32,912 bases of DNA from an uncultured Clostridia bacterium (lineage in GTDB: Bacteria > Bacillota > Clostridia > UMGS1883): contig CANQKL010000003.1 in assembly GCA_947624455.1 (NCBI GenBank), positions 1-32,912 of the forward strand. The letters run 5' to 3'. Each line of letters opens with the position of its first letter. Positions within the stretch are counted from its first letter, which is position 1. Both the position numbers and the translations under genes were made by a program. This document shows positions 7,934 through 23,805 of this stretch, one piece after another. Below the pieces are notes generated by a model. The model was not told where the DNA came from. It saw only the letters and a program-made list of their open reading frames with translations, and did no database searches.

Positions 7934-10831
7934 ATGCTTAAAATCGGCGTTGACGTCGGCAGCACAACTCTCAAGTGCGTTGTGCTGGACGAGAGCGACA
8001 GAATAGTTTACAAGGAGTATAACCGCCACTACAGCATGATAGTTGAAAAGACCGCAGAGCTGTTGGAGCGGGTGCGCGATATGTTCCCGGGAGACAGGGA
8101 AATGGGGCTGGCTGTTTCGGGCAGCGCGGGCATGGGAATGGCCGAGCGCGTCGGCCTCTCCTTCGTGCAGGAGGTCTATGCCACCCGCATTGCGGTAAAG
8201 AGGGCTGTGCCGGAGGCCGACGCCGTCATCGAGCTTGGGGGCGAGGACGCCAAGATCCTTTTCCTCAAGGGCGGGCTGGAGGTTCGCATGAACGGCAGCT
8301 GCGCCGGGGGAACAGGGGCCTTTATAGACCAGATGGCCACCCTTCTCGCCCTAAGTCCCTCAGACATGAACGAATACGCCAAAAAATACGAAAAAATATA
8401 CACTATTGCCTCTCGCTGCGGAGTTTTCGCCAAGAGCGACGTTCAGCCTCTGCTTAACCAGGGGGCAAAAAAGGAGGATATCTCCGCCAGTATTTTTGCC
8501 GCCGTGGTCAATCAGACCATCGCCGGTCTGGCCCAAGGGCGGGAAATCGGAGGCACGGTGGTATATCTGGGCGGGCCGCTGACCTTCATGGATCAGCTGA
8601 GAGCCGCCTTTGACAGGCAGCTTGGGCTTGAGGGGATCTGCCCCGAGAACTCCCTGTATTTTGTGGCGATGGGCGCGGCCCTGTCGCCTACGGTCAAGGC
8701 CGTCGATCTGGCCGCGACCGTAGAAAACGTGAAAAAACACTCCTCCACCGGAGAATATCGCAGCTGTCCGCCGCTGTTTAGGGACGAGGCTGAGTACGAG
8801 GTCTTTCGCGCCCGCCATGGCGCGGCGGCAATTCCGATGACCGACAATCCCGACCCCAAGGAGGCGTACCTTGGTGTGGACGCGGGCAGCACCACGCTCA
8901 AGGCCGTGGTGCTGGACGAAAACGGGGACATAATCCACGCCGACTATATGCCAAACAGCGGAAACCCCATTCCGCTGCTCAGGGACTTTCTGATGAAATT
9001 TCACGAGAAATACCCGAGGGTAAAGATAAGGGCCTCCGCCTCCACCGGTTATGGTGAGGAGATAACCAAAAACGCCTTTGGCTTTGACATGGGGCTTGTG
9101 GAGACTATGGCTCATTTTACCGCCGCGAAAAAGTTTGACCCCGATGTGGACTTCATCATCGACATCGGCGGCCAGGACATAAAATGCTTTAAGATACGGG
9201 GCGGAGCCATCGACAATATCTTCCTCAACGAAGCCTGCTCCTCGGGCTGCGGCTCATTTTTGCAGACCTTTGCGGGAGCTTTGGGCTACAGCATAAGCGA
9301 ATTTGCCCAAAAGGGGATCATGGCGGATAAGCCGGTGGACTTGGGTTCCCGCTGTACGGTGTTTATGAATTCCTCGGTCAAGCAGGCTCAAAAGGATGGG
9401 GCCGGCATAGAGAATATCTCCGCCGGACTCAGCATCAGCGTGGTCAAAAACGCCATATACAAGGTCATACGCGCCGTCAACGCGGACAGCCTTGGCAAAA
9501 ACATCGTGGTTCAGGGAGGCACCTTCCTGAACGACGCTGTGCTGCGGGCCTTTGAAATGGAGCTGGGCAGAGAGGTTGTCCGGCCAAACATCGCCGGTCT
9601 TATGGGCGCTTACGGGGCGGCCCTTTACGCGAAGGCCAACGCGCCCGAGACTTCGACGACCATCACTCCCGAGGGCCTCTGGGACTTTAAGCACGAGATC
9701 AGTTCGGTTACCTGCAACGGCTGTACGAACCACTGCCGTCTGACCGTAAACAGCTTTGGCGGCGGACGGCGGTTCATCGCCGGCAACCGCTGCGAAAAGC
9801 CCTTGAAAACTAAGAACAGTGGGGAAAAGCTTGATCTCTTTGAGTACAACCGCTCGCTCCTCGCGGCCTATGGGCCGAAGGACGGATCAAGGGGAACTAT
9901 AGGCATACCCATGGGTCTCAATATGTGGGAGCTGTACCCATTTTGGCACACATTTTTCACCAATCTGGGCTTTAAGGTCGTCCCGTCGCCCTCCAGCGAC
10001 AGGAGCCTGTACCTGTCCGGTCAGCACACTATCCCCTCGGATACGGTGTGCTTCCCGGCAAAGCTGGTACACGGCCACATCGACGCTCTTTTGAATATGG
10101 GAGTGGACGCTATATTTTACCCCTGTATGTCATATAATTTTGATGAGGGACTGTCCAGCAATCACTACAACTGTCCCGTGGTGGCCTACTATCCCGAGGT
10201 CATTCGGGCCAACGTCACCAATATGGGCAAAACCAGGTTCATCTATGACTATGTCGGCCTTCACCGGCCCAGAGATTTCGTAAAGTCCGTACATAAGATA
10301 CTTCTCCGGGAGTTCGGGGACTTTAGCCTTAAAGAGGTGCGCCGGGCTGCGGACGCGGCCTACGCCGAGTACCGCGCCCACATGGGCCGCATCGCCGCCA
10401 AGGGGCAAGAGTTTTTGAAACTGGCACGGGAGCGGAAGATGCCCGTAATAGTTCTCTGCGGCCGACCCTATCACCTTGACCCGGAGGTCAGTCACGGCAT
10501 CGACAAGCTTATATGCGACCTTGGGGCCGCCGTCATAACCGAGGACAGCGTCAGCCCCCTTGTGGAACCCTTTGAAACTCACGTCCTTAACCAGTGGACC
10601 TACCACGCCAGGCTTTACGCCGCCGCCAAGTGGGCGGCGGAGCAGGGCAACGATGTGAACGTGGTACAGCTTGTGTCCTTTGGCTGCGGAGTTGACGCCA
10701 TAACCGGCGACGAGGTTCGCCGCATCACCGAGGAAAAAGGCAAGATATACACCCAGATAAAGATCGACGAGATAACCAACCTCGGCACGGTCAAGATACG
10801 GCTGAGGAGCCTGTTCGCCGCCCTGCGGTGA
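7934..10831 (+). CDS. 2-hydroxyacyl-CoA dehydratase activator-like protein (two BadF/BcrA-type ASKHA ATPase domains plus DUF2229-like region)
   Basis: Twice-repeated G(V)DxGSTTxK and (E/D)xGG(E/Q)DxK motifs; Fe-S cysteines CAGGTG/SRCGVF and CSSGCG/SRCTVF; CNGCTNHC; TVCFPAK. Confidence 0.9.
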   Translation: MLKIGVDVGSTTLKCVVLDESDRIVYKEYNRHYSMIVEKTAELLERVRDMFPGDREMGLAVSGSAGMGMAERVGLSFVQEVYATRIAVKRAVPEADAVIELGGEDAKILFLKGGLEVRMNGSCAGGTGAFIDQMATLLALSPSDMNEYAKKYEKIYTIASRCGVFAKSDVQPLLNQGAKKEDISASIFAAVVNQTIAGLAQGREIGGTVVYLGGPLTFMDQLRAAFDRQLGLEGICPENSLYFVAMGAALSPTVKAVDLAATVENVKKHSSTGEYRSCPPLFRDEAEYEVFRARHGAAAIPMTDNPDPKEAYLGVDAGSTTLKAVVLDENGDIIHADYMPNSGNPIPLLRDFLMKFHEKYPRVKIRASASTGYGEEITKNAFGFDMGLVETMAHFTAAKKFDPDVDFIIDIGGQDIKCFKIRGGAIDNIFLNEACSSGCGSFLQTFAGALGYSISEFAQKGIMADKPVDLGSRCTVFMNSSVKQAQKDGAGIENISAGLSISVVKNAIYKVIRAVNADSLGKNIVVQGGTFLNDAVLRAFEMELGREVVRPNIAGLMGAYGAALYAKANAPETSTTITPEGLWDFKHEISSVTCNGCTNHCRLTVNSFGGGRRFIAGNRCEKPLKTKNSGEKLDLFEYNRSLLAAYGPKDGSRGTIGIPMGLNMWELYPFWHTFFTNLGFKVVPSPSSDRSLYLSGQHTIPSDTVCFPAKLVHGHIDALLNMGVDAIFYPCMSYNFDEGLSSNHYNCPVVAYYPEVIRANVTNMGKTRFIYDYVGLHRPRDFVKSVHKILLREFGDFSLKEVRRAADAAYAEYRAHMGRIAAKGQEFLKLARERKMPVIVLCGRPYHLDPEVSHGIDKLICDLGAAVITEDSVSPLVEPFETHVLNQWTYHARLYAAAKWAAEQGNDVNVVQLVSFGCGVDAITGDEVRRITEEKGKIYTQIKIDEITNLGTVKIRLRSLFAALR

Positions 10832-10967: not shown

Positions 10968-12287
10968 ATGGAAAGAACCCTGTTCACGAAAGAAATGAAG
11001 GATGCGGGCTACACCATCCTCATTCCCGATATGTGTCACATACACTTTAAGATAATAAAAGAGATAATGCACAACTACGGCTATAACGCCGAAATACTGT
11101 ATAACACAGGCCAGGGCGTGGTGGACGAGGGATTGAAGCACGTCCACAACGACACCTGTTATCCGGCGCTTCTGGTGATCGGTCAAATGATAGACGCTTT
11201 AAAGAGCGGCAAATACGACATTCACAAGGTGGCGCTGCTCCTGCCTCAGACCGGCGGGGGCTGCCGGGCTTCCAACTACATATCTCTGCTGCGTAAGGCT
11301 CTCACGGCCATGGATTGGGGCTTCATTCCCATTATATCCCTTAATTTCAGCGGACTGGAAAAGTCGCCGGGCTTTAAGCTCACCGTCCCCTTTATCCGCC
11401 AGCTTCTGGCGGCGGTGGTCTACGGCGATCTGCTGATGCTGCTGGACAATCAGGTCAAGCCTTATGAAATAAACCGGGGCGACAGCGCCGCCTGCGTGGA
11501 AATGTGGGTGGAAAGGCTGGGCCGCACCTTCCGGGAAAATAAGGGCTTGTCCGCCAGGGAACGCCGGGCCGCCCTCAAGGCCATCGTGGACAGCTTCGCC
11601 CGTATACCCATGAAGAAAGAAAAGAAAATTAAGGTCGGCATAGTGGGAGAAATATACGTAAAATACGCGCCTCTTGGAAATAATAATCTGGAAGACTTCC
11701 TTTATGAGCAGGGCTGCGAGGTAATGCTGGGCGGGCTTATCGACTTTGCCCTCTATTGTACGGACACGCCCATCGACACAATAAATATTTACGGCGGCAA
11801 CGCCCTTCTCAAGGACGGCTACCGTCTGGCGGAAAGCTATCTTTCGTCTTTGAAGGACGAGATGATAGAGGCGGTGAAGCAAAACAGCGATTTTACCCCG
11901 CCTTCCTCCTTCAAACACCTTAAGAGCAAGGCCGACGGCGTGATAGGCACCGGCTGCAAAATGGGGGAGGGCTGGCTCCTGACGGCGGAAATAATGGAGC
12001 TGGTGGAGCTGGGCTATTCTAACGTCATCTGCGCCCAGCCCTTCGGCTGCCTGCCCAATCACATTGTGGGCAAGGGCATGATCCACAAGATAAAGGGCAT
12101 CGCTCCCAGCGCCAACATCGTACCCATAGACTATGACCCAGGCGCCACAAGGGTAAATCAGGAAAACCGCATTAAGCTGATGCTGGCCGTTGCCCAGGAG
12201 GAGCTGGACGGCGACGGCGGCGACAAAATTTATGATGAAAGCAAATCGGGGATCGGCAGCGAGAAGTTAGTAATGAGTAACGAGTAA
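10968..12287 (+). CDS. 2-hydroxyacyl-CoA dehydratase (HGD-D-like) component
   Basis: NDTCYPA, QTGGGCRASNY, VGIVGEIY, GEGW and QPFGCLPNH motifs; AGGAGG RBS. Confidence 0.85.
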   Translation: MERTLFTKEMKDAGYTILIPDMCHIHFKIIKEIMHNYGYNAEILYNTGQGVVDEGLKHVHNDTCYPALLVIGQMIDALKSGKYDIHKVALLLPQTGGGCRASNYISLLRKALTAMDWGFIPIISLNFSGLEKSPGFKLTVPFIRQLLAAVVYGDLLMLLDNQVKPYEINRGDSAACVEMWVERLGRTFRENKGLSARERRAALKAIVDSFARIPMKKEKKIKVGIVGEIYVKYAPLGNNNLEDFLYEQGCEVMLGGLIDFALYCTDTPIDTINIYGGNALLKDGYRLAESYLSSLKDEMIEAVKQNSDFTPPSSFKHLKSKADGVIGTGCKMGEGWLLTAEIMELVELGYSNVICAQPFGCLPNHIVGKGMIHKIKGIAPSANIVPIDYDPGATRVNQENRIKLMLAVAQEELDGDGGDKIYDESKSGIGSEKLVMSNE

Positions 12288-12459
12288 TAAATTTCAGCGC
12301 GGACTTGTTCTTGTTACGACGCCCTTGGATTTGATGGGGCCGTTTCGGCGTCAAAACGGTACTCTTTTAAAGAAAATTATCGCGCCAATAACGCCGCAAG
12401 GGCGTTTATACAGTTCTGGAGCTGTGAAAAAAGCTTCAGCGACAGGGAGGAATACGAAA

Positions 12460-13143
12460 ATGGAAAAAACGATACTCATTGTTGACGACGAGGCTCCTAT
12501 CGTGGATATGCTAAAGTTCAATCTGGCCAAGGCGGGCTACAAGACTATGGCCGCCTATGACGGACGGACGGGGCTTGAACTGGCCACAACGAAGAAGCCG
12601 GATCTGATATTGCTTGACGTTATGCTGCCCAAGATGGACGGCTTTGAGGTCTGCCGCAAAATTAGAGAGGCGGACAGGGACGTACCCATTCTCATGCTCA
12701 CCGCCAGGGAGGAGGAGATAGATAAGGTCTTTGGCCTGGAATCCGGAGCCGACGACTATATCACAAAGCCCTTCTCCATACGCGAATTGATGGCCCGGGT
12801 AAAGGCCAACCTCCGCCGCGGGGCCGAACCCTCCGACGCGAGGATAATAAGCATAGATTCCCTTGAAATAAACACCGGACTGTACGAGGTGAAAAAGAAC
12901 GGCGTTCCTGTGGAACTCACGCTTCGTGAATTTGAGCTGCTCAAATTCCTGGCCAGTCAGCCGGGACGCATTTTTTCCCGCGAAATGCTGCTGGAAAAGG
13001 TCTGGGGATACGAGTATTTTGGAGATGTGCGGACAGTGGACGTGACTGTGCGCCGTCTCCGCGAAAAGGTGGAGGACAATCCCGCCGCGCCTGAGCGCAT
13101 AATGACCAAGCGCGGAGTGGGGTACTACTATAACAAGGATTAA
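12460..13143 (+). CDS. walR: OmpR-family response regulator, WalR/YycF-like
   Basis: ATG 12460 after GGGAGG; ILIVDDE, DLILLDVMLP, GADDYITKPF and the WalR-like VWGYEYFGDVRTVDVTVRRLREKVED; context with kinase, yycH and yycI. Confidence 0.82.
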   Translation: MEKTILIVDDEAPIVDMLKFNLAKAGYKTMAAYDGRTGLELATTKKPDLILLDVMLPKMDGFEVCRKIREADRDVPILMLTAREEEIDKVFGLESGADDYITKPFSIRELMARVKANLRRGAEPSDARIISIDSLEINTGLYEVKKNGVPVELTLREFELLKFLASQPGRIFSREMLLEKVWGYEYFGDVRTVDVTVRRLREKVEDNPAAPERIMTKRGVGYYYNKD

Positions 13144-13177: not shown

Positions 13178-14956
13178 ATGTTCAAAAGTATCCAATGGAA
13201 AATAATAGCGATATTTCTCCTGCTTACCATTTCGGTCATGATAGTGGTAGGCACATTTCTCCTGCAAAATATTTCCACCTATTATTTGGAGGACTTTCGC
13301 ACTACCATGTCCGAGCAGGTGTTCAGCAGCCGTATGATAAACGACCTTACCGTGGCCGCCGGCAGGGAGGAGCCGGTGGCTGAGATGAAGTCGATTTTGG
13401 ACGTGTTCTCCCTGAGAATGGGGATCGACTCCTACCGTAACTACTACATTCTGGACGGCAAAAACTGCCGCGTCCTTGACCGCAGCGACCCCCAGGGAGG
13501 GGCCTTCTCCACCACGCCCAATATCGTCACCGCCATGGCGGGCATGACCGGCGACAATATCGACCGAGATACGGAATATATGGACTACGCGGTACCCATC
13601 ATGCCCGACGGACAGGTGGAGTACATAATCAGCGTTCGGGACACTAAGGAGGAGGTCTACGAGGTCACACGCAATATCTTTGTCAACATTCTCTGGGCCA
13701 TACTGTTCGGCCTGCTCATCAGCCTTGTGCTAGGCTTTGTGCTTTCTCGGACCATAATTGCACCTATCCTGACCCTTCAGTATAGGGCCGAGGCCATGGC
13801 CGAGGGCGATTTCAACCACAGGATAGAGGTTCAGTCCAGGGACGAGATAGGCCGCCTGACGATGGCGTTCAACACTATGGCCGCCCAGATCGAAACCAAT
13901 ATGGAGGACATAGCCGCCGAAAAAAATAAGGTGGAGACCGTGCTGCTGCACATGACCGACGCTATAATCGCCTTTGAGAGCAGCACTGGCAGGGTAATTC
14001 ACGAAAATCCCGCCTGCGTCAACGTTTTGGGCGACTGTGCCGACAGAACCTTTGACGAAATATTTGACGGCCAGCTGCGGCTTGACGTAAACATGAGCCG
14101 GGTCCTCAACCTGGAGGAGGGCCAGTCTATGGAGTTCGACGCGGAGATAGAGGGCAAAAACTACCGAGTTTGTTTTGTACCCTTTAACGCTGAGAATGTG
14201 TTCTCCTCGGGAGTGGTCGTGGTGTTCAGGGACGTGACCCGACAGTTGAAGCTGGAACGGTCCCGACGGGAATTTGTCGCCAACGTGTCCCACGAGCTGC
14301 GCACGCCCCTTACCACTGTTAAGGGCTATGCCGAGACTATAATTGATATGGAGGAGGACGAGGGCCGCGGCGACGGCCCTACGGCTGGCTTTGCCAAGGT
14401 CATCGACAACGAGGCGGATCGCATGACGCGCCTGGTCAAGGACCTTTTAACACTGTCCCAGCTGGACAGCGAAAAGCAGCAGCTCAACTGCACCTCCTTC
14501 GACCTTATGGAGCTGACCGAAAGCGTCACCCAAAAGTTGACGATGAACGCCCGATCTCACGGCCATACCCTCAGCTTTATCCCTCGTAGCGCCCCCTTCT
14601 CCTTCTTCGGGGACAGGGACAGGATAGAGCAGGTCATCACCAACATCGTTTCAAACGCCGTCAAGTACACTCCCGACGGCGGCAAGATAGATGTGGAATG
14701 TGGCAACGACGGACAAAACGCGCTCATACCCCGGGAGGATCTGCCCCACATTTTCGAGCGTTTTTATCGGGTGGACAAGGCCCGCAGCCGTCAGAGCGGC
14801 GGTACAGGGCTGGGGTTAGCCATTGCCCGGGAGATAGCTCAGCGTCACGGGGGCGACATATCCATAGAAAGCCATATGCCCGAGGGAACTCAGGTGTCCA
14901 TAGTCCTGCCCATGTACCGGGAAAACCCCGAGGCGGAGAGGCCGATAGTGGTCTGA
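13178..14956 (+). CDS. walK: Membrane sensor histidine kinase, WalK/YycG-like; G1 box absent
   Basis: Two TM segments, HAMP (SRDEIGRLTMAFNTMA), PAS, H box FVANVSHELRTPLT, N box NIVSNAVKYT, F box IFERFYRVD, G2 GGTGLGLAI; no DxGxG between N and F boxes. Confidence 0.85.
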   Translation: MFKSIQWKIIAIFLLLTISVMIVVGTFLLQNISTYYLEDFRTTMSEQVFSSRMINDLTVAAGREEPVAEMKSILDVFSLRMGIDSYRNYYILDGKNCRVLDRSDPQGGAFSTTPNIVTAMAGMTGDNIDRDTEYMDYAVPIMPDGQVEYIISVRDTKEEVYEVTRNIFVNILWAILFGLLISLVLGFVLSRTIIAPILTLQYRAEAMAEGDFNHRIEVQSRDEIGRLTMAFNTMAAQIETNMEDIAAEKNKVETVLLHMTDAIIAFESSTGRVIHENPACVNVLGDCADRTFDEIFDGQLRLDVNMSRVLNLEEGQSMEFDAEIEGKNYRVCFVPFNAENVFSSGVVVVFRDVTRQLKLERSRREFVANVSHELRTPLTTVKGYAETIIDMEEDEGRGDGPTAGFAKVIDNEADRMTRLVKDLLTLSQLDSEKQQLNCTSFDLMELTESVTQKLTMNARSHGHTLSFIPRSAPFSFFGDRDRIEQVITNIVSNAVKYTPDGGKIDVECGNDGQNALIPREDLPHIFERFYRVDKARSRQSGGTGLGLAIAREIAQRHGGDISIESHMPEGTQVSIVLPMYRENPEAERPIVV

Positions 14957-15063
14957 TAGCGGCTGGGATGGGCAGAGGTGGCCAGAAACTCCCAATTTGC
15001 GGTAAAAATCCCCTCCCAGGCAGGAACCCCTCGCATGGTAAAATATGGTAAAAGTCCGACGAC

Positions 15064-15118
15064 TGTAAACAACAATTAACGTGGATGTAATTGTTTTGTA
15101 ACATAACTGGTGTATAAT
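15064..15118 (+). promoter_or_regulatory. WalR box array and -10 element for the gene at 15157
   Basis: TGTAAT-TGTTT-TGTAAC (15086-15102), further in-register half-sites TGTAAA (15064) and degenerate ATTAAC (15075); TATAAT at 15113-15118 without a good -35. Confidence 0.7.
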
Positions 15119-15156
15119 TAGCATAGGTAAAAAAGATTAGAACGGATGTGTGTGAC

Positions 15157-15627
15157 ATGAAGTATATAGGGGCGACCTTAGCCGCTATACTGGTCATGCT
15201 TTCCGGGCTGAACGTTTATGCGGCCCACCCGAACTCCATCGGGGCAGCGGAAAGCAGCACCGCTTCAGATTTAATAGTGGTCAAAAAACCGGAGACTAAC
15301 AATTCCGCTACGACTAAAACCACCTACGGCATTACCGGTACGGGTAAGAACGGCGTGAGCGTTGCCTATTACAAGTACGACGGGAGCGGTTACAGCGCTA
15401 TACTGAACAGCGATGGGGCCGCGTCTCAGACCAAAATAGGCGCGGCGGGGGTTTTTTATAAGCAGATGAGCCTCTCCGAGGGACACAATAAATTTGCGGT
15501 GAGAGCTGAGTATAAAGGCCTCAGTCAGGTGATATACCTGGATATAAACCTCCTTAAACGGGAGGTTCTGGACAACGTGAACAGCTTTACCTATGATGTG
15601 CAGTCTATCTTTACCGGATGGATTTAA
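15157..15627 (+). CDS. Secreted hypothetical protein, beta-rich, possibly Ig-like (156 aa)
   Basis: Signal peptide MKYIGATLAAILVMLSGLNVYA; GVFYKQMSLSEGHNKFAVRAE resembles Ig-like LxxGxNxIxVxA strands. Confidence 0.8.
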   Translation: MKYIGATLAAILVMLSGLNVYAAHPNSIGAAESSTASDLIVVKKPETNNSATTKTTYGITGTGKNGVSVAYYKYDGSGYSAILNSDGAASQTKIGAAGVFYKQMSLSEGHNKFAVRAEYKGLSQVIYLDINLLKREVLDNVNSFTYDVQSIFTGWI

Positions 15628-15687: not shown

Positions 15688-15814
15688 AAATTTTATAACA
15701 ACAGGCGGTCGGTAATGAGAATTAGTATAAAGGCGGAGTTTTCCTCTTGCCGCCCGATTGACGCTATTATTTGCAAATTTGAGGGCGCAATTTGCCAGAA
15801 AGGACGGTGAGACT

Positions 15815-17257
15815 GTGTTCAAGGAACGGATAAAGACCTCGATAATCATACTCCTTTTCATCAATTTAATAGCTCTCACCTGTCAGCTCTGGTTTGGGGG
15901 CGGTTTGCTCAAGGAGGAGATATCGGACTTCGCGAGGGGGCTGCCCTTGGTGGAAAAGCTCTTTCCAAAGGACGAAATATCCATTCCCAGAGATATGCTG
16001 AGCCGTCCCAGGCGAATCCTTATCAACGACGGTTCCTTGTGGATAGCCTATTACAACACGGACGTGGCCTTTTCACCCATTGAAAACCGCACCAGCCAGA
16101 TCATTCAGGCCTTTTTGCGCGGCGAGACGGCGGACAGTAAGCCGGTCTCCTTTAGGGAGTGGCAGGCCGCGCTGGAAAACGTGAGCATCTATGTTGAGCT
16201 GCCCATAGCTTACGCTACGGAAATGCTCTGCTCGGTCATGGGCGTCGACGCTCAGGCCGCGCCAGGGGATATTTCAACGATAAGGGATTTTATTATCCTG
16301 CCCTCCACCGAGGAAACGGGGGTATTTCTCCTGGTTCGGGACGCCTATGACAACGACAACGCCCGAATATACCAGTTCCCCCTGGGCAGCTTCAGCCTTC
16401 CGGCCAGCGACCTTTCCATCTACACCGAGAACAACGCCGACTACTACGAGCCAGCATTTAGCACTGGGGTGGAGCCGGAAGGGGTATCCCTGGATCCTAT
16501 GGTCTTGTTCTTTGACAGCCGGCCCTCCACCGCCGACCTCATCCCCGGCAATCCCATTGCCGACCCTGAGGCGGCGCAGAAGGTGCTGAGCGGGTTTTTC
16601 ACCAATGTGGACACCGCCGGAAGGTACGACGACGGCGGGGTGAGCGTGTTTGTCGAAAATTACGGCGACGCCCGCGTTTACCCGGGCGGACTCTTTGAAT
16701 ACAGAGCCGTGGAGGAGGACAAGGGCGTTAAAATAACCGAGAGCTATTCTTCCTACTACGAAACGGTCAACTCCGCCATCAGCTTTGCCGAGGAGCTGTG
16801 GAGCCAGGTCGGCAACGGGCCGCTCTCGGTTCTGGTCAGCAGCGACCTGACCCAGGAGAGCGGCAGGATACATCTGACCATGGACTATTATCAGGACGGA
16901 CGCCCTGTGGCTGTGGAACTGACCGGCAGAGGATTTGAACGCCTGGGCCATGGCATAGAAATGGATATAGTCGAAGGCCGCATAGTCTCCTACCGCCAGT
17001 TGTTCCGCAGTTACCAAACGGGCGGGACCTCGGTCCTCAACGGAGATTTTGTGGGGGCGCTGGATCATTTTGCCAACGATTTCTCCGCCAGGCCCCAGCC
17101 CGTGATAACCGATATATACATAGGTTATATTGATCGGGGCGGGACGGACAGTCTAAAGGCCTGCTGGCTGGCGGAGCTGTCCGGGGAGGATCGGGTATAC
17201 GACTATACCGGCGAGACTCAGGAACCCGCCGCCGAGGCTGGGGAGGTGAGCCAATGA
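15815..17257 (+). CDS. yycH: YycH (WalH)-like membrane-anchored two-component regulator
   Basis: GTG 15815 after AAGGACGGTGA; KERIKTSIIILLFINLIALTCQLWF matches the YycH-type TM anchor; large extracytoplasmic domain; overlaps next gene at ATGA. Confidence 0.7.
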   Translation: MFKERIKTSIIILLFINLIALTCQLWFGGGLLKEEISDFARGLPLVEKLFPKDEISIPRDMLSRPRRILINDGSLWIAYYNTDVAFSPIENRTSQIIQAFLRGETADSKPVSFREWQAALENVSIYVELPIAYATEMLCSVMGVDAQAAPGDISTIRDFIILPSTEETGVFLLVRDAYDNDNARIYQFPLGSFSLPASDLSIYTENNADYYEPAFSTGVEPEGVSLDPMVLFFDSRPSTADLIPGNPIADPEAAQKVLSGFFTNVDTAGRYDDGGVSVFVENYGDARVYPGGLFEYRAVEEDKGVKITESYSSYYETVNSAISFAEELWSQVGNGPLSVLVSSDLTQESGRIHLTMDYYQDGRPVAVELTGRGFERLGHGIEMDIVEGRIVSYRQLFRSYQTGGTSVLNGDFVGALDHFANDFSARPQPVITDIYIGYIDRGGTDSLKACWLAELSGEDRVYDYTGETQEPAAEAGEVSQ

Positions 17258-18009
17258 GGTGGTCTTTGGTAAAAAATCTTTTGCTGGGGCTTTTGCTGGT
17301 GATGAACCTGTATATGCTGGGCGTGTCGTTCGCCAAGCGGCTGAGCAGCGAAAAAATACCTCCGCTGGTGGCCGCCTCCGCGGTGGAGGCTCTGGAAAAC
17401 AGCGGCATAAGCTGCGATCCCGGTCTGTTCCCGGACAGGTATCTGACGGTCAGAACCTTTAATGTCAGCTTCCCCACGCCGATGGAGCTGTCGCGTATGT
17501 TCTTCGGCGAACAGTTGGCCTTTCAAACCGAGGAGCGGACTCTTATCGCCCGCCAAGACGGGGCCGAACTGAGGGTCGAGGACGAAGGTTTCAGCTATAG
17601 CAGCGGTGAGGCGGCTTCGTCCGCCAACGAAAAGCAGCTGCGCCGGGCCCTTAAGGAGCTGGGATTGGATATGAGCCGGGCCAGATATGCGCGGGACGGG
17701 TCGTTTGCCTGCTATTTTGACGGGCGGCCGGTTTTTGGTATGTATATCCGGGCCTCGCTGGACGCCGACGGCCAACTGGCGCGGGTGGAGGCCCGGTGGC
17801 CCCTAAAGGGCTACACCGGAGACCGCAGGAGCGGGGTGAGCATAATCGACTTTATCCCCGATATCCTCAGCCGTTTTCCCGAGGGAGGGACAGTGACCGG
17901 CCTTGAGGCGGGCTATTTGGCTGTCCGCAACGAAAACACTGACATTTACTCCTTTGTACCCGCTTGGCGCATCACAATGGAGGACGGAAAAACGGAAGTG
18001 TTCAGCTAA
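17254..18009 (+). CDS. yycI: YycI (WalI)-like regulator
   Basis: N-terminal MRWSLVKNLLLGLLLVMNLYML and C-terminal LEAGY...FVPAWRI match the YycI pattern; translationally coupled to yycH. Confidence 0.72.
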   Translation: MRWSLVKNLLLGLLLVMNLYMLGVSFAKRLSSEKIPPLVAASAVEALENSGISCDPGLFPDRYLTVRTFNVSFPTPMELSRMFFGEQLAFQTEERTLIARQDGAELRVEDEGFSYSSGEAASSANEKQLRRALKELGLDMSRARYARDGSFACYFDGRPVFGMYIRASLDADGQLARVEARWPLKGYTGDRRSGVSIIDFIPDILSRFPEGGTVTGLEAGYLAVRNENTDIYSFVPAWRITMEDGKTEVFS

Positions 18010-18108
18010 CGGGTCGTTATGACAGGGTCAATTCGCGGGGCGCGGCGATCCGGTTCGCCTTAAAATATGACTTCCAGGCGTTTATTCGTTGGCCCCTCGG
18101 CCGACTCC

Positions 18109-18531
18109 TCACTCCACGCTGACCTTTTCCCCTCCGCAGCGGCGCAGGCGTCGGACAGTGGCGCCGGTCAGATCCTCGTCCATGCTGACAGTGAACAGCC
18201 AGCGGCGGTCAGGCTCCCGGTTGGAGGACTCAAAGTCTATAAAGCCGCCGACTATGGCCCCTACTACCGTTCCGCTCACCAGCCCCGCTACCGGCCCTAT
18301 GCCTGTGGCAAAGCCGATGTTGTCGAGCATGGCGGCCCCAAGCCCTAAAAGCGTGCCAGCCGCCGCGCCTACGGCCATGCCCGAGAGGGTGTTTTTCCCC
18401 GCGAAGGAGGAGGGTACCTCGGCGCGGCAGACCCTGATCTTGTCGGCTTGGGCTCCGTTTTCCCGGGCCGCCTCCGAAGCGGCCTCAAGCTCCTCGGCTG
18501 TGTCGAAGAGGGCGGTTATGGTTTTTTCCAC
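18109..18531 (-). CDS. Small glycine-zipper membrane protein, general-stress-protein-like
   Basis: GTG start with AAAGGAG RBS; TITALFD..E..AA N-terminus and GMAVGAAAGTLLGLGA...GPVAGLVSGTVVGAIVGG zipper. Confidence 0.75.
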   Translation of the reverse strand: MEKTITALFDTAEELEAASEAARENGAQADKIRVCRAEVPSSFAGKNTLSGMAVGAAAGTLLGLGAAMLDNIGFATGIGPVAGLVSGTVVGAIVGGFIDFESSNREPDRRWLFTVSMDEDLTGATVRRLRRCGGEKVSVE

Positions 18532-18564
18532 GGTTTTTCAGCTCCTTTCATTTATGTCTGCAAA

Positions 18565-18594
18565 TAGTATTTTTCAAGACGCGAAAAAATATTC
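18565..18594 (-). promoter_or_regulatory. Candidate sigma-G/F promoter for the glycine-zipper gene
   Basis: Minus strand GAATA, 18 nt, AATACTA. Confidence 0.45.
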
Positions 18595-18607
18595 TCGAGG
18601 TGGTAAC

Positions 18608-19198
18608 GTGAACAAAAAATTTATCCTTATATTGACGGCGGCTTTGATGGCATCCATGCTTGGCGGCTGCGGCGGTGAAGATAAAAAAACCGAAGAAATG
18701 CCCGAAAACATAATCTCATACAAGGAGAAGGACGGCAAAGACCTAGTGCCGGTCGCCGAGACCGAGGTGGTTGGGGAGGAAGCCGTCGTTGATCCCAACG
18801 CCATGGAGCTGCCCGGAGAGGATGAGCTTGGAGAATATGAGGAGATCTTCATGGAGGGCGACATAATAAACGAAACCACCGTGGGCGGCTGGGTAGTGGC
18901 GGTCAGCCAAAAGGATATCACGGTAAACACATACAATGAGCTTACCACTTATGTCTACGAGGAGAACGCCCGCAACACGGGTATCCGCCTAAAGCCCGGC
19001 GACGCGGTCGTCGTGAGCTTCCGCGAGGGAGAGGACGGCGTTATGTACGCCAACAATATCGGCCGCGTCCGCACGGAGGACGAACCCCTCACAAGGGATG
19101 AGATCGAGTCCATGTACAAGCAGGCGAACGGCGATGAAGGCGGCGCCGCTGTTGACGCCGCCGCGGAAACGGAGGACGGTAATGGCAGAGAGGAATGA
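18608..19198 (+). CDS. Acidic lipoprotein of unknown function (196 aa)
   Basis: GTG 18608 after GAGGTGG; signal peptide II with lipobox MLGGC; GWVVAV...LKPGDAVVVSF suggests an OB-like barrel. ORF-track start 18089 is over-extended. Confidence 0.8.
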   Translation: MNKKFILILTAALMASMLGGCGGEDKKTEEMPENIISYKEKDGKDLVPVAETEVVGEEAVVDPNAMELPGEDELGEYEEIFMEGDIINETTVGGWVVAVSQKDITVNTYNELTTYVYEENARNTGIRLKPGDAVVVSFREGEDGVMYANNIGRVRTEDEPLTRDEIESMYKQANGDEGGAAVDAAAETEDGNGREE

Positions 19199-20498
19199 GC
19201 GGGTAAATGTCATAGGCGGCGGCTTGGCGGGCTGCGAGGCAGCTTGGCAGCTGGCCAGGCGGGGAGTGGGAGTGCGGCTCTTCGATATGAAGCCCCATCG
19301 CTTTTCGCCCGCCCATTCCGACCCCAACCTCTGTGAGCTGGTCTGCTCAAATTCCCTCAAGGGCGCGGGCCTTGACAATGCCTGCGGCCTGCTCAAGGAG
19401 GAAATGCGCCGGCTTGACAGCCTGGTTATATCCTGCGCCGACCGGACAAGAGTGCCAGCCGGCGGAGCCTTGGCTGTGGACAGGGAAGCCTTTGCCGCCC
19501 TGGTCACCCAAAGTCTCAGGGAGCTTCCCCAGGTGGAGATTGTTTCCGAAACCGTTGAGGAGCTGCCCGAGGGAATAAGTATTATCGCCACCGGGCCGCT
19601 GACCTCCGGAGGCATGAACGGCGTCATCGCCGGTCTTACCGGCGGCGGGGGCCTGCACTTTTACGACGCCGCGGCTCCGGTCATAACCGCCGACAGCATC
19701 AACATGGAAAAAACATACCTTGCCGCCCGTTACGGTAAAGGTACGCCGGATTATATAAACTGCCCCATGGAAAGGGACGAGTATGACGCTTTCTGGGAGG
19801 CTTTGGTAACGGCGGAGAAGGCTCCCCTCCACGAAAATGTGGAAAAGCCCAATGTCTTTGAGGGCTGTATGCCCGTGGAGATTATGGCCGCCAGGGGACG
19901 GGACACCTTGCGCTTCGGCCCGCTGAAGCCCAAGGGCCTGCGAGACCCCAGGACCGGGCTTACGCCCTGGGCCGTCCTTCAGCTGCGGCGGGACAACGCT
20001 CAGGGAACCCTTTATAACATGGTGGGCTTTCAGACCAATTTGAAATTTGGGGAACAAAAGAGAGTATTCTCCATGATACCCGGCTTGGAAAACGCGGAGT
20101 TTGTCCGTTACGGTGTCATGCACCGCAATACCTACATCGACTCGCCCCGGCTGCTGAACCGGGATTACAGCCTTCGCTCGCGGCCCGAGATCTTTTTTGC
20201 CGGGCAGATCACCGGCGTGGAGGGCTATGTGGAATCCGCCGCGTCGGGCCTGCTGGCTGGGGTGAACGCCGCCGCCCGGCTGAGGGGAGAACCGCCCCTG
20301 ATACTGCCGCCGTCCACTTGCGCCGGAGCCTTGACCGCCTATATTACGGATGAGGAAGTGAAAAACTTTCAGCCCATGAACGCCAACTTCGGCATAATCC
20401 AGTGGGAACATATCAAAATTAAGAATAAAAAGGAAAGATATGAACATATTTCCGCACACGCTTTGGAGGATTTGGCAAATTGCACAAAAAAATCATAA
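19182..20498 (+). CDS. trmFO: Folate/FAD-dependent tRNA (uracil-54) methyltransferase TrmFO
   Basis: ATG 19182 after GGAGG; VIGGGLAGCEAAWQLA, ELVCSNS, FEGCMPVE, LRFGPLKPKGL, FAGQITGVEGYVES, FQPMNANFG. Confidence 0.96.
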   Translation: MAERNERVNVIGGGLAGCEAAWQLARRGVGVRLFDMKPHRFSPAHSDPNLCELVCSNSLKGAGLDNACGLLKEEMRRLDSLVISCADRTRVPAGGALAVDREAFAALVTQSLRELPQVEIVSETVEELPEGISIIATGPLTSGGMNGVIAGLTGGGGLHFYDAAAPVITADSINMEKTYLAARYGKGTPDYINCPMERDEYDAFWEALVTAEKAPLHENVEKPNVFEGCMPVEIMAARGRDTLRFGPLKPKGLRDPRTGLTPWAVLQLRRDNAQGTLYNMVGFQTNLKFGEQKRVFSMIPGLENAEFVRYGVMHRNTYIDSPRLLNRDYSLRSRPEIFFAGQITGVEGYVESAASGLLAGVNAAARLRGEPPLILPPSTCAGALTAYITDEEVKNFQPMNANFGIIQWEHIKIKNKKERYEHISAHALEDLANCTKKS

Positions 20499-20604: not shown

Positions 20605-23600
20605 ATGAAAAAGTTAAACCTTCGTGCGTTGGCCGCCGGGCTTGCCACTTCGGTGGCTATGACATGCCTGAGCGGCGTTCCCGCGTTTGCGGCGGCGCAG
20701 AAAGTTGGCGATGCGGCGCAGGCCGTTATGCCCACCCGTGCCCAGGCTGTCGAGGCGCTGGAGCGGGCCAATGATAAGTGGATAACCAGCAATGGTCACG
20801 GCCGTTCTTTCTGGGATAACGCGGCTTACCATGTTGGTAATATGGAAGCTTATTTTACCACAGGTATCGAGCTTTACCGTAACTATTCCGAGGCTTGGGC
20901 GATCCAGAATAACTGGAAGGGCGCTACAAGCAATAACAAGAACGCCTGGAAGGGCAACGCCTCCAACGGCGGCTATGGCGAGGGACAGGACTGGGTTCTG
21001 TTCGGCGACTGGCAGATCTGCTTCCAGACCTATATCGACCTTTACAATGACGAAGTGATGGCTTCTAAGAACACCATCAAGGACGAGGGTAAGGTCGCCC
21101 GCGCTATTGAGGTCATGAGCTATCAGGCTTCTCGTTCCGAGACTGACTGGTGGTGGTGGGCCGACTCCCTGTTCATGGCAATGCCCATCATGAGCAAGCT
21201 CTATGTTCTCACCGGCGACTATAAGTACCTTGACAAGCAGTACGAATGGTTCAAGTGGGCTGCCGAGGACGTTGAAGGCGGCACCAAGGACGGTATGTGG
21301 GATGCGGAGGAACAGTTGTTCCACCGTGACGGCAAGTACATATATCCCGACCACAAGACGGACAGCGGCAAGAAGGATTTCTGGGCACGCGGTTCCGGCT
21401 GGGTATTCGCAGGTCTTGCCCGCGTTCTCTCTGATATGCCTACCGACTATCAGCACAGAGATTACTTCCTTGATAAGTATACTCAGATGGCTCAGGGCGT
21501 GGCCCGTAACCAGCAGAAGGAGGGCTTCTGGTCCCGTTCTATAATCGACCGCGCTTATGCCGACGGTTTTGAGTCCAGCGGTACGTCCTTCTTCACCTAT
21601 GGCCTTGCTTGGGGCATCAACAGCGGCTATCTTGACCGCAATACCTATCTCGACACCGCTCTCAAGGGCTGGTACTTCCTGTACAACACCGCCCTTCAGG
21701 CCGACGGCACCGTAGGCTATGTTCAGCCCATCGGCGAGAACCCCCGTCAGTCCCTTAATATCGGCGGCGGCAACACCGCTAACTTCGGCGTGGGCGCTTT
21801 CCTGCTTGCGGCCTGCGAAATTTCCAAGCTGGCTGGCGGCGTTTACGGCGACCAGACCAATAACAACGACATTTATCCCTACATAATGAGAAAACTCGTT
21901 GGCAAGTATGTTATCGAGGTAAATACCGCTCACTTCTATCACGATGGCGTCATCAATCACCACGATGAAAGCAACCACAATATGCAGACATACGTTAAGG
22001 ATGGCACTACCATGCTTCCCGTTATCGCCATCAAGAACTATATGACTGACTGCGACGTTACCGAGGATGGCGACACCGTTTACGTAACCCGCGACATCAA
22101 GAACGGCAGCAACACCACCAGAAAGACGGTTGTCTTTAATATGGGAAGCGCCAACTACACTGTTGACGGAGCAGCCGGAGTTCTGCCCACCGCCGCCGAG
22201 CGTAAAGACGGCTATGCCTGCGTTCCTGTTCGTCAGGTAATGGAGGGTCTTGGCTACAAGATCTGGTACAGCGCTTACAGCGGTACCAGCAATTATGTCG
22301 CCAACAACCCCATGGACGCTCTTATAGTAATTTCCGAGAAGGCCGATCCCTTCTTTGACTGTGATTCCAACGCTGTTGAGATGCTGCGCTGGATGCTTGA
22401 GGTAAATCACCACTATCCCGAACGTGTTCAGAGTCCTAAGCCCTATACGGTTGAGAAGCCTATGCAGGCCGCTACCGAGGCTTACGGCACTCAGATACCC
22501 CTGACTACTTCCATGCTTTCCGCCAGCGCTACTCCCGAGGCGGCTAACCATGTTGGTCAGACCATCGACAACAATGTTGAGACTCGCTGGGCCGCTCAGG
22601 GCAAGCAGTACATGACTATAGACCTTGGCGTTCCCATGCAGATCTCCTGCGTAGGCGTGCGCATGATGCGCTACACCGACAGCCGCGTTATCAACTACGG
22701 CGTGTCCATTTCCTCTGACAACACCAACTGGACCAGCGTGTTCAACGGCACCAGCGTTCCTAACGGCGCCACCTGGGAGTTCCCCAAGGTTGACGGCAAG
22801 GTTGCCCGTTATGTCCGCATCAACGTAAACGGTTCCTCCACTAATGATTGGGCCAGCGTGGCCGATGTGGCCGTATTCCAGGGCGACGCCAACTCCCCCA
22901 AGGCTTCCGGCGTTTCCGGCAGCTCCGCTGGCGGAGTTGTCACCCAGGGCGTAACCAATAGCGCTTCCGGCACCAAGGTAACTCTTAACTCCGGTATGCT
23001 CAGGGCCAGCGCCGAGCCTCAGAGTGAGAATCCCGCTTCCGCCATTGTTGACGGCAATCCCAATACTTACTGGGCCGTTGAGGGCAGCGCTAACATCGTT
23101 ATCGACCTTGGCAGCGCTCAGACGATTGGCACGGTAGGCGTACAGATGAGAAACTACAGCAGCGAGGCTCCCAACAGAACTCTGCCTTACACAGTTTCCG
23201 TATCTGCCGACGGCTCCAGCTATACCTCTGTCGCTTCCAAGACCAGCCCCGCTGGCGGCGGAGTGATGGAATCCATTACGGTTGGTCAGAACGCAAGATA
23301 TGTAAAGATCGATGTAAACGGCTCTAATGAGGGCCAGTGGGCTAGTGTGGCCGAGGTCGAGGTATACGGTGGCACAGTTTCCGGCGGCAGCGCCGGCGGA
23401 GCCTTTGTGTCCGGTCTTTCCTCCACATCCACTAAGCCTGTTGGCAATCGGATAAATTCCAAGTCCGCTGCGGCTCTCATCATCGCCGACACTAAGTTCC
23501 CCGCCTCCGCCGCTATTGACGGCGATAAAAATACTGCCTGGAAGGGTCTTGCTAACCAGAGCATCGTTGTAGAGGCCGCCGCTGAAAAGACCATTACAAG

Positions 23601-23805
23601 TATTGGTATTCGCGGTCAGGAGAACGATATCACCTATTCTGTATCCGTATCTTCCGATGGCAGCGCCTGGACTGCTGTTTACAGCGGCAGCGCGGCCGCC
23701 GGAGCTACAACTTATCATCCCTGCCAGGTAAAGGGCAAGTATGTCATGGTTACCCTTCTTACCGAGGGCAAGGTAGCCGAGGTAGAAATTTACGGCGCTG
23801 AATAA
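20605..23805 (+). CDS. Secreted modular GH105/GH88 unsaturated uronyl hydrolase with copper-amine-oxidase-N (stalk) domain and three F5/8C (CBM32) modules
   Basis: Signal peptide; WWWADSLFMAMP, FWARGSGW, FESSGTSFF; KDGTTMLPV...KDGYACVPVRQVMEGLGYKIWY stalk; three repeats of D(N/G)xxxTxW...SxDxxxWT...YVxI...EVEVY joined by G/S linkers. Confidence 0.88.
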   Translation: MKKLNLRALAAGLATSVAMTCLSGVPAFAAAQKVGDAAQAVMPTRAQAVEALERANDKWITSNGHGRSFWDNAAYHVGNMEAYFTTGIELYRNYSEAWAIQNNWKGATSNNKNAWKGNASNGGYGEGQDWVLFGDWQICFQTYIDLYNDEVMASKNTIKDEGKVARAIEVMSYQASRSETDWWWWADSLFMAMPIMSKLYVLTGDYKYLDKQYEWFKWAAEDVEGGTKDGMWDAEEQLFHRDGKYIYPDHKTDSGKKDFWARGSGWVFAGLARVLSDMPTDYQHRDYFLDKYTQMAQGVARNQQKEGFWSRSIIDRAYADGFESSGTSFFTYGLAWGINSGYLDRNTYLDTALKGWYFLYNTALQADGTVGYVQPIGENPRQSLNIGGGNTANFGVGAFLLAACEISKLAGGVYGDQTNNNDIYPYIMRKLVGKYVIEVNTAHFYHDGVINHHDESNHNMQTYVKDGTTMLPVIAIKNYMTDCDVTEDGDTVYVTRDIKNGSNTTRKTVVFNMGSANYTVDGAAGVLPTAAERKDGYACVPVRQVMEGLGYKIWYSAYSGTSNYVANNPMDALIVISEKADPFFDCDSNAVEMLRWMLEVNHHYPERVQSPKPYTVEKPMQAATEAYGTQIPLTTSMLSASATPEAANHVGQTIDNNVETRWAAQGKQYMTIDLGVPMQISCVGVRMMRYTDSRVINYGVSISSDNTNWTSVFNGTSVPNGATWEFPKVDGKVARYVRINVNGSSTNDWASVADVAVFQGDANSPKASGVSGSSAGGVVTQGVTNSASGTKVTLNSGMLRASAEPQSENPASAIVDGNPNTYWAVEGSANIVIDLGSAQTIGTVGVQMRNYSSEAPNRTLPYTVSVSADGSSYTSVASKTSPAGGGVMESITVGQNARYVKIDVNGSNEGQWASVAEVEVYGGTVSGGSAGGAFVSGLSSTSTKPVGNRINSKSAAALIIADTKFPASAAIDGDKNTAWKGLANQSIVVEAAAEKTITSIGIRGQENDITYSVSVSSDGSAWTAVYSGSAAAGATTYHPCQVKGKYVMVTLLTEGKVAEVEIYGAE

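Follow-up and report, generated by a model that had tools for sequence, protein, structure and literature searches.

The stretch of DNA analysed in this study, hereafter the window, comprises 32,912 nucleotides of contig CANQKL010000003.1 (assembly GCA_947624455.1, an uncultured Clostridia bacterium). It carries a two-component gene pair on the + strand, in which the open reading frame (ORF) of a sensor histidine kinase begins 35 nt 3' of that of its neighbouring response regulator. The regulator likely starts at the ATG at 12460, which lies within a listed ORF of 12325-13143. The features of the pair and of two ORFs downstream are given below.

12460..13143, + strand: OmpR-family response regulator, best match YycF/WalR (Pfam Response_reg 112.2 bits, Trans_reg_C 99.8 bits)
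13178..14956, + strand: WalK-like sensor histidine kinase ORF, 592 aa, with a 27-nt in-frame deletion (best NCBIfam match HK_WalK; best solved relative VicK, 4i5s)
13739..13894, + strand: HAMP domain, kinase residues 188-239 (Pfam PF00672, 60.9 bits)
13907..14266, + strand: cytoplasmic PAS-like region, residues 244-363 (phmmer against the S. aureus WalK PAS structure 4mn5, E 7.8e-6)
14261..14473, + strand: HisKA/DHp domain, residues 362-432 (Pfam PF00512, 67.9 bits, cut-off 26.9)
14291-14293, + strand: phospho-accepting His372 of the H box, with Glu373 and Thr376 intact
14609..14914, + strand: HATPase_c catalytic domain, residues 478-579 (Pfam PF02518, 86.9 bits, cut-off 26.4)
14654-14668, + strand: N box, N493-A-V-K-Y497, aligning to VicK and WalK
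14725..14729, + strand: deletion junction CATAC, the sole remaining copy of the microhomology (27-column DNA gap in the window; public-run contig X2)
14753-14764, + strand: F box, F526-E-R-F529, aligning to VicK and WalK
14801-14815, + strand: G2 box, G542-T-G-L-G546, aligning to VicK and WalK
15758-17257, + strand: ORF of 499 aa with a hydrophobic N-terminal segment by eye, in the position where YycH/YycI-type genes would be
17254-18009, + strand: ORF of 251 aa with a hydrophobic N-terminal segment by eye, overlapping the 499-aa ORF by 4 nt

The kinase and its gene neighbourhood

Both domains of a class I histidine kinase (HisKA and HATPase_c) exceeded the Pfam gathering scores, and no Pfam PAS domain was matched in the kinase at E <= 0.01. 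In an alignment of 81 sequences, the columns of the H box (S371-H-E-L-R-T-P377) were invariant, and those of the H, N, F and G2 boxes as a group were invariant or nearly so. This agrees with the earlier note on this DNA, which had called these four boxes intact, as do the alignments with VicK and WalK. The G1 box (DxGxG) is absent from the kinase of the window, and a 9-residue gap takes its place in the alignments with solved kinases and with orthologues.

The best NCBIfam family of the kinase was HK_WalK (NF033092), at 434.1 bits and below the cut-off of 725, with residues 1-579 aligned to profile positions 1-594; the score against NCBIfam VicK was 234.5 bits (cut-off 680). We infer that the 9-residue gap explains only a small part of the shortfall in the WalK score. 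The best family of the regulator was resp_reg_YycF, at 321.2 bits and just under the cut-off of 340. The name "WalK-like" given to the kinase by the earlier note is fair as a description of the best match, but the curated cut-off for WalK is missed.

Neither the 499-aa nor the 251-aa ORF matched a Pfam or NCBIfam family at E <= 0.01, and phmmer searches for sequence relatives in the PDB returned chance-level matches only (E >= 0.45). When the search was opened to E <= 10, the 251-aa ORF gave a faint match to Pfam YycI (E 0.18, 11.8 bits). By eye the products of both ORFs look anchored in the membrane, and they may be divergent YycH/YycI-type accessory proteins. No metallo-beta-lactamase gene of the WalJ type was present among the ORFs scanned around the kinase.

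Further observations were made on the neighbourhood. Four consecutive + strand ORFs 3' of the kinase have no convincing family (15148-15627, 15758-17257, 17254-18009 and 18089-19198), and the last of them is overlapped by about 100 nt by a GidA-family ORF at 19098-20498 (PF01134, 324.4 bits). The GidA match begins at residue 36, and this ORF probably starts at a point 3' of the listed ATG. At 20605-23805 lies a 1066-aa protein with a GH88 domain (unsaturated glucuronyl hydrolase), a copper-amine-oxidase-N1-like domain and three F5/8 type C carbohydrate-binding repeats, which is likely a secreted glycosaminoglycan- or mucin-related glycosidase. On the 5' side of the two-component pair, 7934-10831 encodes a 965-aa BcrAD_BadFG ATPase fused to DUF2229 (CoA-enzyme-activase type), and 10968-12287 is a 439-aa ORF that matches DUF2229 weakly.

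The 27-nt gap at the G1 box

The earlier note proposed that the kinase had undergone a clean in-frame loss of its G1 box at an ATA-CCC junction (14726-14731), with about 9 codons missing, plausibly by deletion between two Ile codons. The ORF and the alignments confirmed the loss and its junction, and a deletion between two Ile codons fits them. The kinase ORF at the junction region reads NAVKYTPDGGKIDVECGNDGQNALIPREDLPHIFERF, and the catalytic domain reads NAVKYTPDGGKIDVECGNDGQNALIPREDLPHIFERFYRVDKARSRQSGGTGLGLAIA. The junction codons are those of Ile517 (ATA, 14726-14728) and Pro518 (CCC, 14729-14731), so that the protein runs ...GQNALI-PREDLPHIF.... According to the protein and DNA alignments with orthologues, the segment missing from the window is exactly 9 codons (27 nt) encoding RVTDNGIGI, and it spans the latter half of a core beta-strand and all of the G1 box. 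The best solved relatives by phmmer were S. mutans VicK (4i5s, E 5.5e-58) and L. plantarum WalK (4u7n, E 1.2e-44); a 9-residue query gap lies opposite SISDQGLGI of VicK, and the same 9-residue gap was found at the equivalent stretch of L. plantarum WalK. In the intact allele of a strain about 99% identical to the window, ATA-C stands at both ends of the lost stretch. Within this microhomology ATAC is certain and the leading C is uncertain, which makes it 4 nt long, or 5 nt should the parent have carried C in place of the G of the X2 contig.

A best WalK-like orthologue was found in all 31 relatives' genomes searched. For the protein alignment, 19 orthologues were used (10 of the same genus, 8 of the same family and 1 of the same order), and those of 11 other relatives were left out. 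Aligning the orthologues of related genomes, as the earlier note had suggested, confined the loss to the window: the segment [IL]-R/x-V-x-D-N/x-G-[IM]-G-I, lying between ...NAL and PRED..., was present in 19 of the 19, and the 9 gap columns fell in the window alone. The DNA alignment gave the same picture, with the 27 nt present in 10/10 same-genus sequences and the gap only in the window. In a collection with one genome per species (GTDB representatives), 77 loci were found and all 74 that reach the site were intact, 71 by a regular expression for a 48-residue N-box-to-F-box span with DxGxG and three (L036, L086 and L093) by eye, while L046, L047 and L085 end at a contig end before the site and so fall outside the count of 74; some of these loci come from the same genomes as the 31 searched for orthologues, and the two sets are not independent. 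The D, G, G and I of DxGxGI were invariant in the intact orthologues (80/80).

In a protein database of 5.8 billion clusters, the protein of the window formed a singleton cluster with one member on one contig. Among the best 120 matches listed, which include the window, the other 119 were all intact, with the 48-residue span and DxGxG; the span from the Asn box to the Phe box was 39 residues in the window only. Because every other listed match has the span of 48 and the window alone has 39, the missing segment is not a chance pattern. The closest of the listed matches (P0002) has the segment, and 555 of its 602 aligned positions are shared with the protein of the window. A degenerate-codon pattern for the deleted junction had 0 matches in the species-representative genomes, a scan outside which the window's own record may lie. 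In a metagenome contig collection there were 0 matches both for this pattern and for a gapped pattern covering both alleles, and this search had no power, as even the intact form of the genus was absent from it. Judged from these comparisons, the gap is private to this assembly.

Apart from the gap, 3 substitutions are private to the kinase of the window, counted over the columns on which all 10 genus-level orthologues agree. The corresponding numbers for the others range from 0 to 14, and since 3 falls within this range, the rest of the kinase gives no signal of decay or relaxed selection. Such an absence is expected for a very recent event.

Studies of the L. plantarum WalK-nucleotide structure have shown that the G1 residue Asp542 hydrogen-bonds the adenine N6 and that the adenine ring is sandwiched by Tyr518 of the N box and Ile547 of G1 (PMC5633905). 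Because the G1 Asp, which contacts adenine, is missing together with its loop, the protein of the window should not bind ATP. If real, it should thus also be unable to autophosphorylate. The earlier note had predicted a kinase-dead product, and the deduction behind it, that ATP would not be bound, is sound on established knowledge of the Bergerat fold, in which the G1 Asp binds adenine (PMC5633905).

The effect on the fold was illustrated with AlphaFold2. The DHp-CA region of the closest species-level orthologue, modelled with an 80-sequence alignment, had a mean pLDDT of 83.0, and its beta-strand 156-163 (fragment numbering) leads into D163-x-G165-x-G167-I168. With the same alignment, the DHp-CA fragment of the window had a mean pLDDT of 70.9, the strand was cut to 156-158, and pLDDT was below 50 over residues 160-185 (26 residues), from the junction through the F box and lid; AlphaFold is no predictor of stability, and the models only illustrate the loss of a core element. 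In HisKA kinases, an acidic residue acts in the kinase reaction and a Thr/Asn in the phosphatase reaction (PMC3510030). Because His372, Glu373 and Thr376 of the DHp domain remain, the protein could conceivably act as a phosphatase or a scaffold. Any residual WalR~P phosphatase or scaffold activity would require that the protein stays stable despite its damaged catalytic domain.

Strain types and the origin of the deleted form

Nine public runs contained part of the window, and the contigs of four of them (X1-X4) were compared with it over 13600-15600; this evidence consists of assembled contigs at a depth of about 3-6, not of raw reads. Runs labelled as rabbit gut metagenome contain near-identical contigs. 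X1 and X2 represent a second strain type, because they share a set of variants, and X3 represents the strain type of the window, because over its five listed pieces (903 nt) it matches the window with 0 other letters. The identity of the X3 pieces elsewhere also indicates that the assembly is not generally error-prone. At 15022, in the intergenic stretch between the kinase stop (14956) and the start of the next ORF (15148), X1 and X2 have one extra G and X3 agrees with the window; this is strain-type variation in a non-coding stretch, and it helps to separate the two strain types.

The sole contig that bridges the junction is record 11 of X2 (376 nt, depth 4.15), which covers 14444-14792 with 4 mismatches in 349 nt. 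It has 27 extra letters behind 14724 and a C>G change at 14725, and it reads in frame A-L-I-R-V-T-D-N-G-I-G-I-P. This translation contains a complete G1 box, and the strain it comes from is about 99% identical to the window. The deleted junction was seen in none of the contigs of X1-X4 listed over 13600-15600. No listed contig of X1, X3 or X4 lies across 14724, and X3 is without cover over 14337-14738. In X1, the bin depths were 3.55 and then 2.73, with depth 0 at 14724, which suggests a contig ending near the junction, and nothing was concluded from it. An extra stretch of about 27 bp encoding DxGxG, which the earlier note named as evidence against its reading, was found in one public-run contig, but that contig comes from a slightly different strain and not from the window's own. 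The caveat of the same note that an assembly error or a minority allele might be involved is upheld.

The source genome assembly consists of 251 contigs and is 91% complete. Within it, no second contig with an intact allele was found, the protein search giving paralogues of <=49% identity only, and the codon pattern for VTDNGIGIP had 0 matches.

Other possible inputs to the WalR-like regulator were found in the same genome. Further intact HisKA kinases, each beside its own regulator, are encoded there, among them a PhoR/PnpS-like pair (contig 109) and a second pair (contig 87), and also a PASTA Ser/Thr kinase of the PrkC/StkP type (G000:C122:942-2621, a 682-aa frame with Pkinase at 189.7 bits and three PASTA repeats). 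PASTA kinases phosphorylate WalR in Bacillus and Staphylococcus. That the other HisKA kinases or the PASTA kinase serve as alternative inputs to the regulator is speculative. A search of this genome for acetate kinase, which would supply acetyl phosphate, gave no match; at 91% completeness this is no evidence that the gene is absent. Another observation in the same genome concerns a 140-aa frame (G000:C211:1500-1841, L026), in which a stretch 49% identical to the catalytic domain of the kinase (residues 479-584) contains one TAA. This may be a histidine-kinase gene that has been broken or cut short.

We believed, with about even confidence, that the deleted form is a real, dominant and recent loss-of-kinase allele that arose through a 27-bp slippage deletion in an otherwise canonical WalK-like kinase. 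On this reading, the gene is otherwise that of a canonical WalK-like bifunctional sensor kinase with a membrane anchor, HAMP, PAS-like, HisKA and HATPase_c regions, beside the YycF/WalR-like regulator. In the lineage or the molecules from which the assembly was made, the 27 bp would have been lost between two ATAC microhomologies 27 nt apart, which is a signature of replication slippage. The loss would have occurred very recently and would be private to the strain type of the window, and its product would neither bind ATP nor autophosphorylate. The 3 private substitutions, the otherwise perfect motifs and the intact gene of the near-identical strain imply that the event is either very recent or never took place in the organism. 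Against a real allele stands the lack of any independent contig with the deleted junction, the only bridging contig being intact. A null allele as the dominant genotype is also less likely a priori, because all relatives have conserved the gene and C. difficile depends on its wal operon for viability (PMC9210968). In streptococci, however, WalK can be disrupted and WalR cannot (PMC9087282), for which reason a viable kinase-dead strain is conceivable.

The deleted form might instead be unrepresentative. It could stem from a local assembly error in a MAG of low coverage, from a library molecule that was chimeric or had slipped, or from an allele carried by a minority, while the dominant genotype has its G1 box intact. 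This is a serious possibility that we would place a little short of even. It accords with the singleton protein on one contig, with the intactness of all relatives, with the 27 nt carried by the only junction-bridging contig in four runs, and with a catalytic domain that is otherwise perfectly conserved, as expected for a gene functional in vivo. The genome is a 251-contig assembly at 91% completeness, the run contigs of the window's strain type have a depth of only about 3-6, and if the source data were equally shallow, a few aberrant molecules could decide the consensus. However, a De Bruijn collapse needs repeats of at least k-1, and the repeat of 4-5 nt at this site is far below the k-mers of assemblers, so that graph collapse cannot create the junction and some sequenced molecules should carry it. 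The deletion is in frame and flanked by microhomology, like real slippage deletions; the bridging contig belongs to the other strain type, as shown by the variants it has in common with X1; and the genome has no second contig bearing the intact allele.

The earlier note also named a pseudokinase, phosphatase-only or scaffold product, with WalR in need of another phospho-donor. As an evolved state, this would be a functional WalK repurposed in that way and kept by selection. The retention of His372, Glu373, Thr376 and all the other boxes, among them the conserved Thr/Asn that acts as the phosphatase residue in HisKA kinases (PMC3510030), is compatible with it, as are the streptococcal WalK that can be disrupted while WalR cannot (PMC9087282) and the other intact HisKA kinases and the PASTA kinase of this genome, which could in principle feed WalR. 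We nevertheless consider such an evolved pseudokinase very improbable, and a reading of this kind is not supported. The loss occurs in 0/19 orthologues, 0/74 species-level relatives and 0/119 other listed database matches, with 0 matches in the scan of species-representative genomes; the rest of the catalytic domain shows no decay, and the kinase has no compensating changes. Because a strain about 99% identical is still intact, selection has had no time to maintain a pseudokinase. Part of the core beta-strand is gone as well, and the confidence of the model is lost over 26 residues.

A fuller version of the recent-deletion reading would hold that a free-living rabbit-gut strain truly has the G1-less allele as its dominant genotype and can dispense with WalK autokinase activity, that the protein is a WalR~P phosphatase or scaffold or is inert, and that the regulator is driven otherwise, by cross-talk from another HisKA kinase or from the PASTA kinase. 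We regard this full set of propositions as rather unlikely. If it is real, the allele would be a natural experiment, in which a gut anaerobe survives with a kinase-dead copy of a two-component sensor, and it would bear on the need for WalK kinase activity, as opposed to WalR itself, outside model organisms. Several Bacillota cannot live without this sensor, which is being pursued as a target for antibiotics. The main value of the finding at present is cautionary: a clean in-frame loss of a catalytic motif that occurs in one MAG, but in none of its relatives and not in a near-identical strain, needs read-level support before it is read as an evolved pseudokinase.

Comparison with known systems

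The kinase resembles WalK/YycG/VicK of Bacillota (4i5s; 4u7n/4u7o) in its nearly full-length best match, in its HAMP, PAS-like, HisKA and HATPase_c regions and in the adjacent YycF-like regulator, and it has nearly the same H, N, F and G2 boxes as VicK. Unlike these kinases, it scores below the curated cut-offs, and its G1 box and the preceding half-strand are missing in the window. It is also comparable with WalRK of C. difficile as a clostridial wal-type system. Studies have shown that the walA-walR-walK-truA2 operon of C. difficile is essential for viability and envelope biogenesis (PMC9210968). WalK of C. difficile is described there as having no intracellular PAS domain and as having the lipoprotein gene walA upstream (PMC9210968), whereas the kinase of the window has a PAS-like region and its upstream genes are of the CoA-enzyme-activase type.

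Histidine kinases without autokinase activity are known in other bacteria. For example, DivL of Caulobacter is a histidine-kinase scaffold of this kind (PMC4211667, PMC5361649), and like DivL, the protein of the window could still bind a response regulator. In contrast, the degeneracy of DivL is conserved lineage-wide and has a known signalling role, whereas the loss described here is private and absent from a strain about 99% identical.

Spontaneous walK alleles of staphylococci, such as those with reduced glycopeptide susceptibility, are natural point or small in-frame changes that lower WalRK signalling. Clinical walK mutations are also cited in the introduction of PMC9087282. No complete loss of the G1 box in WalK was reported in the titles and abstract openings of the papers listed on the WalK G1 box. 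The staphylococcal alleles are mostly missense changes in a viable hypomorph, whereas the G1 box is lost completely here. On the comparative evidence, the deleted form is a private, very recent lesion or an artefact of a single MAG rather than a new kind of WalK.
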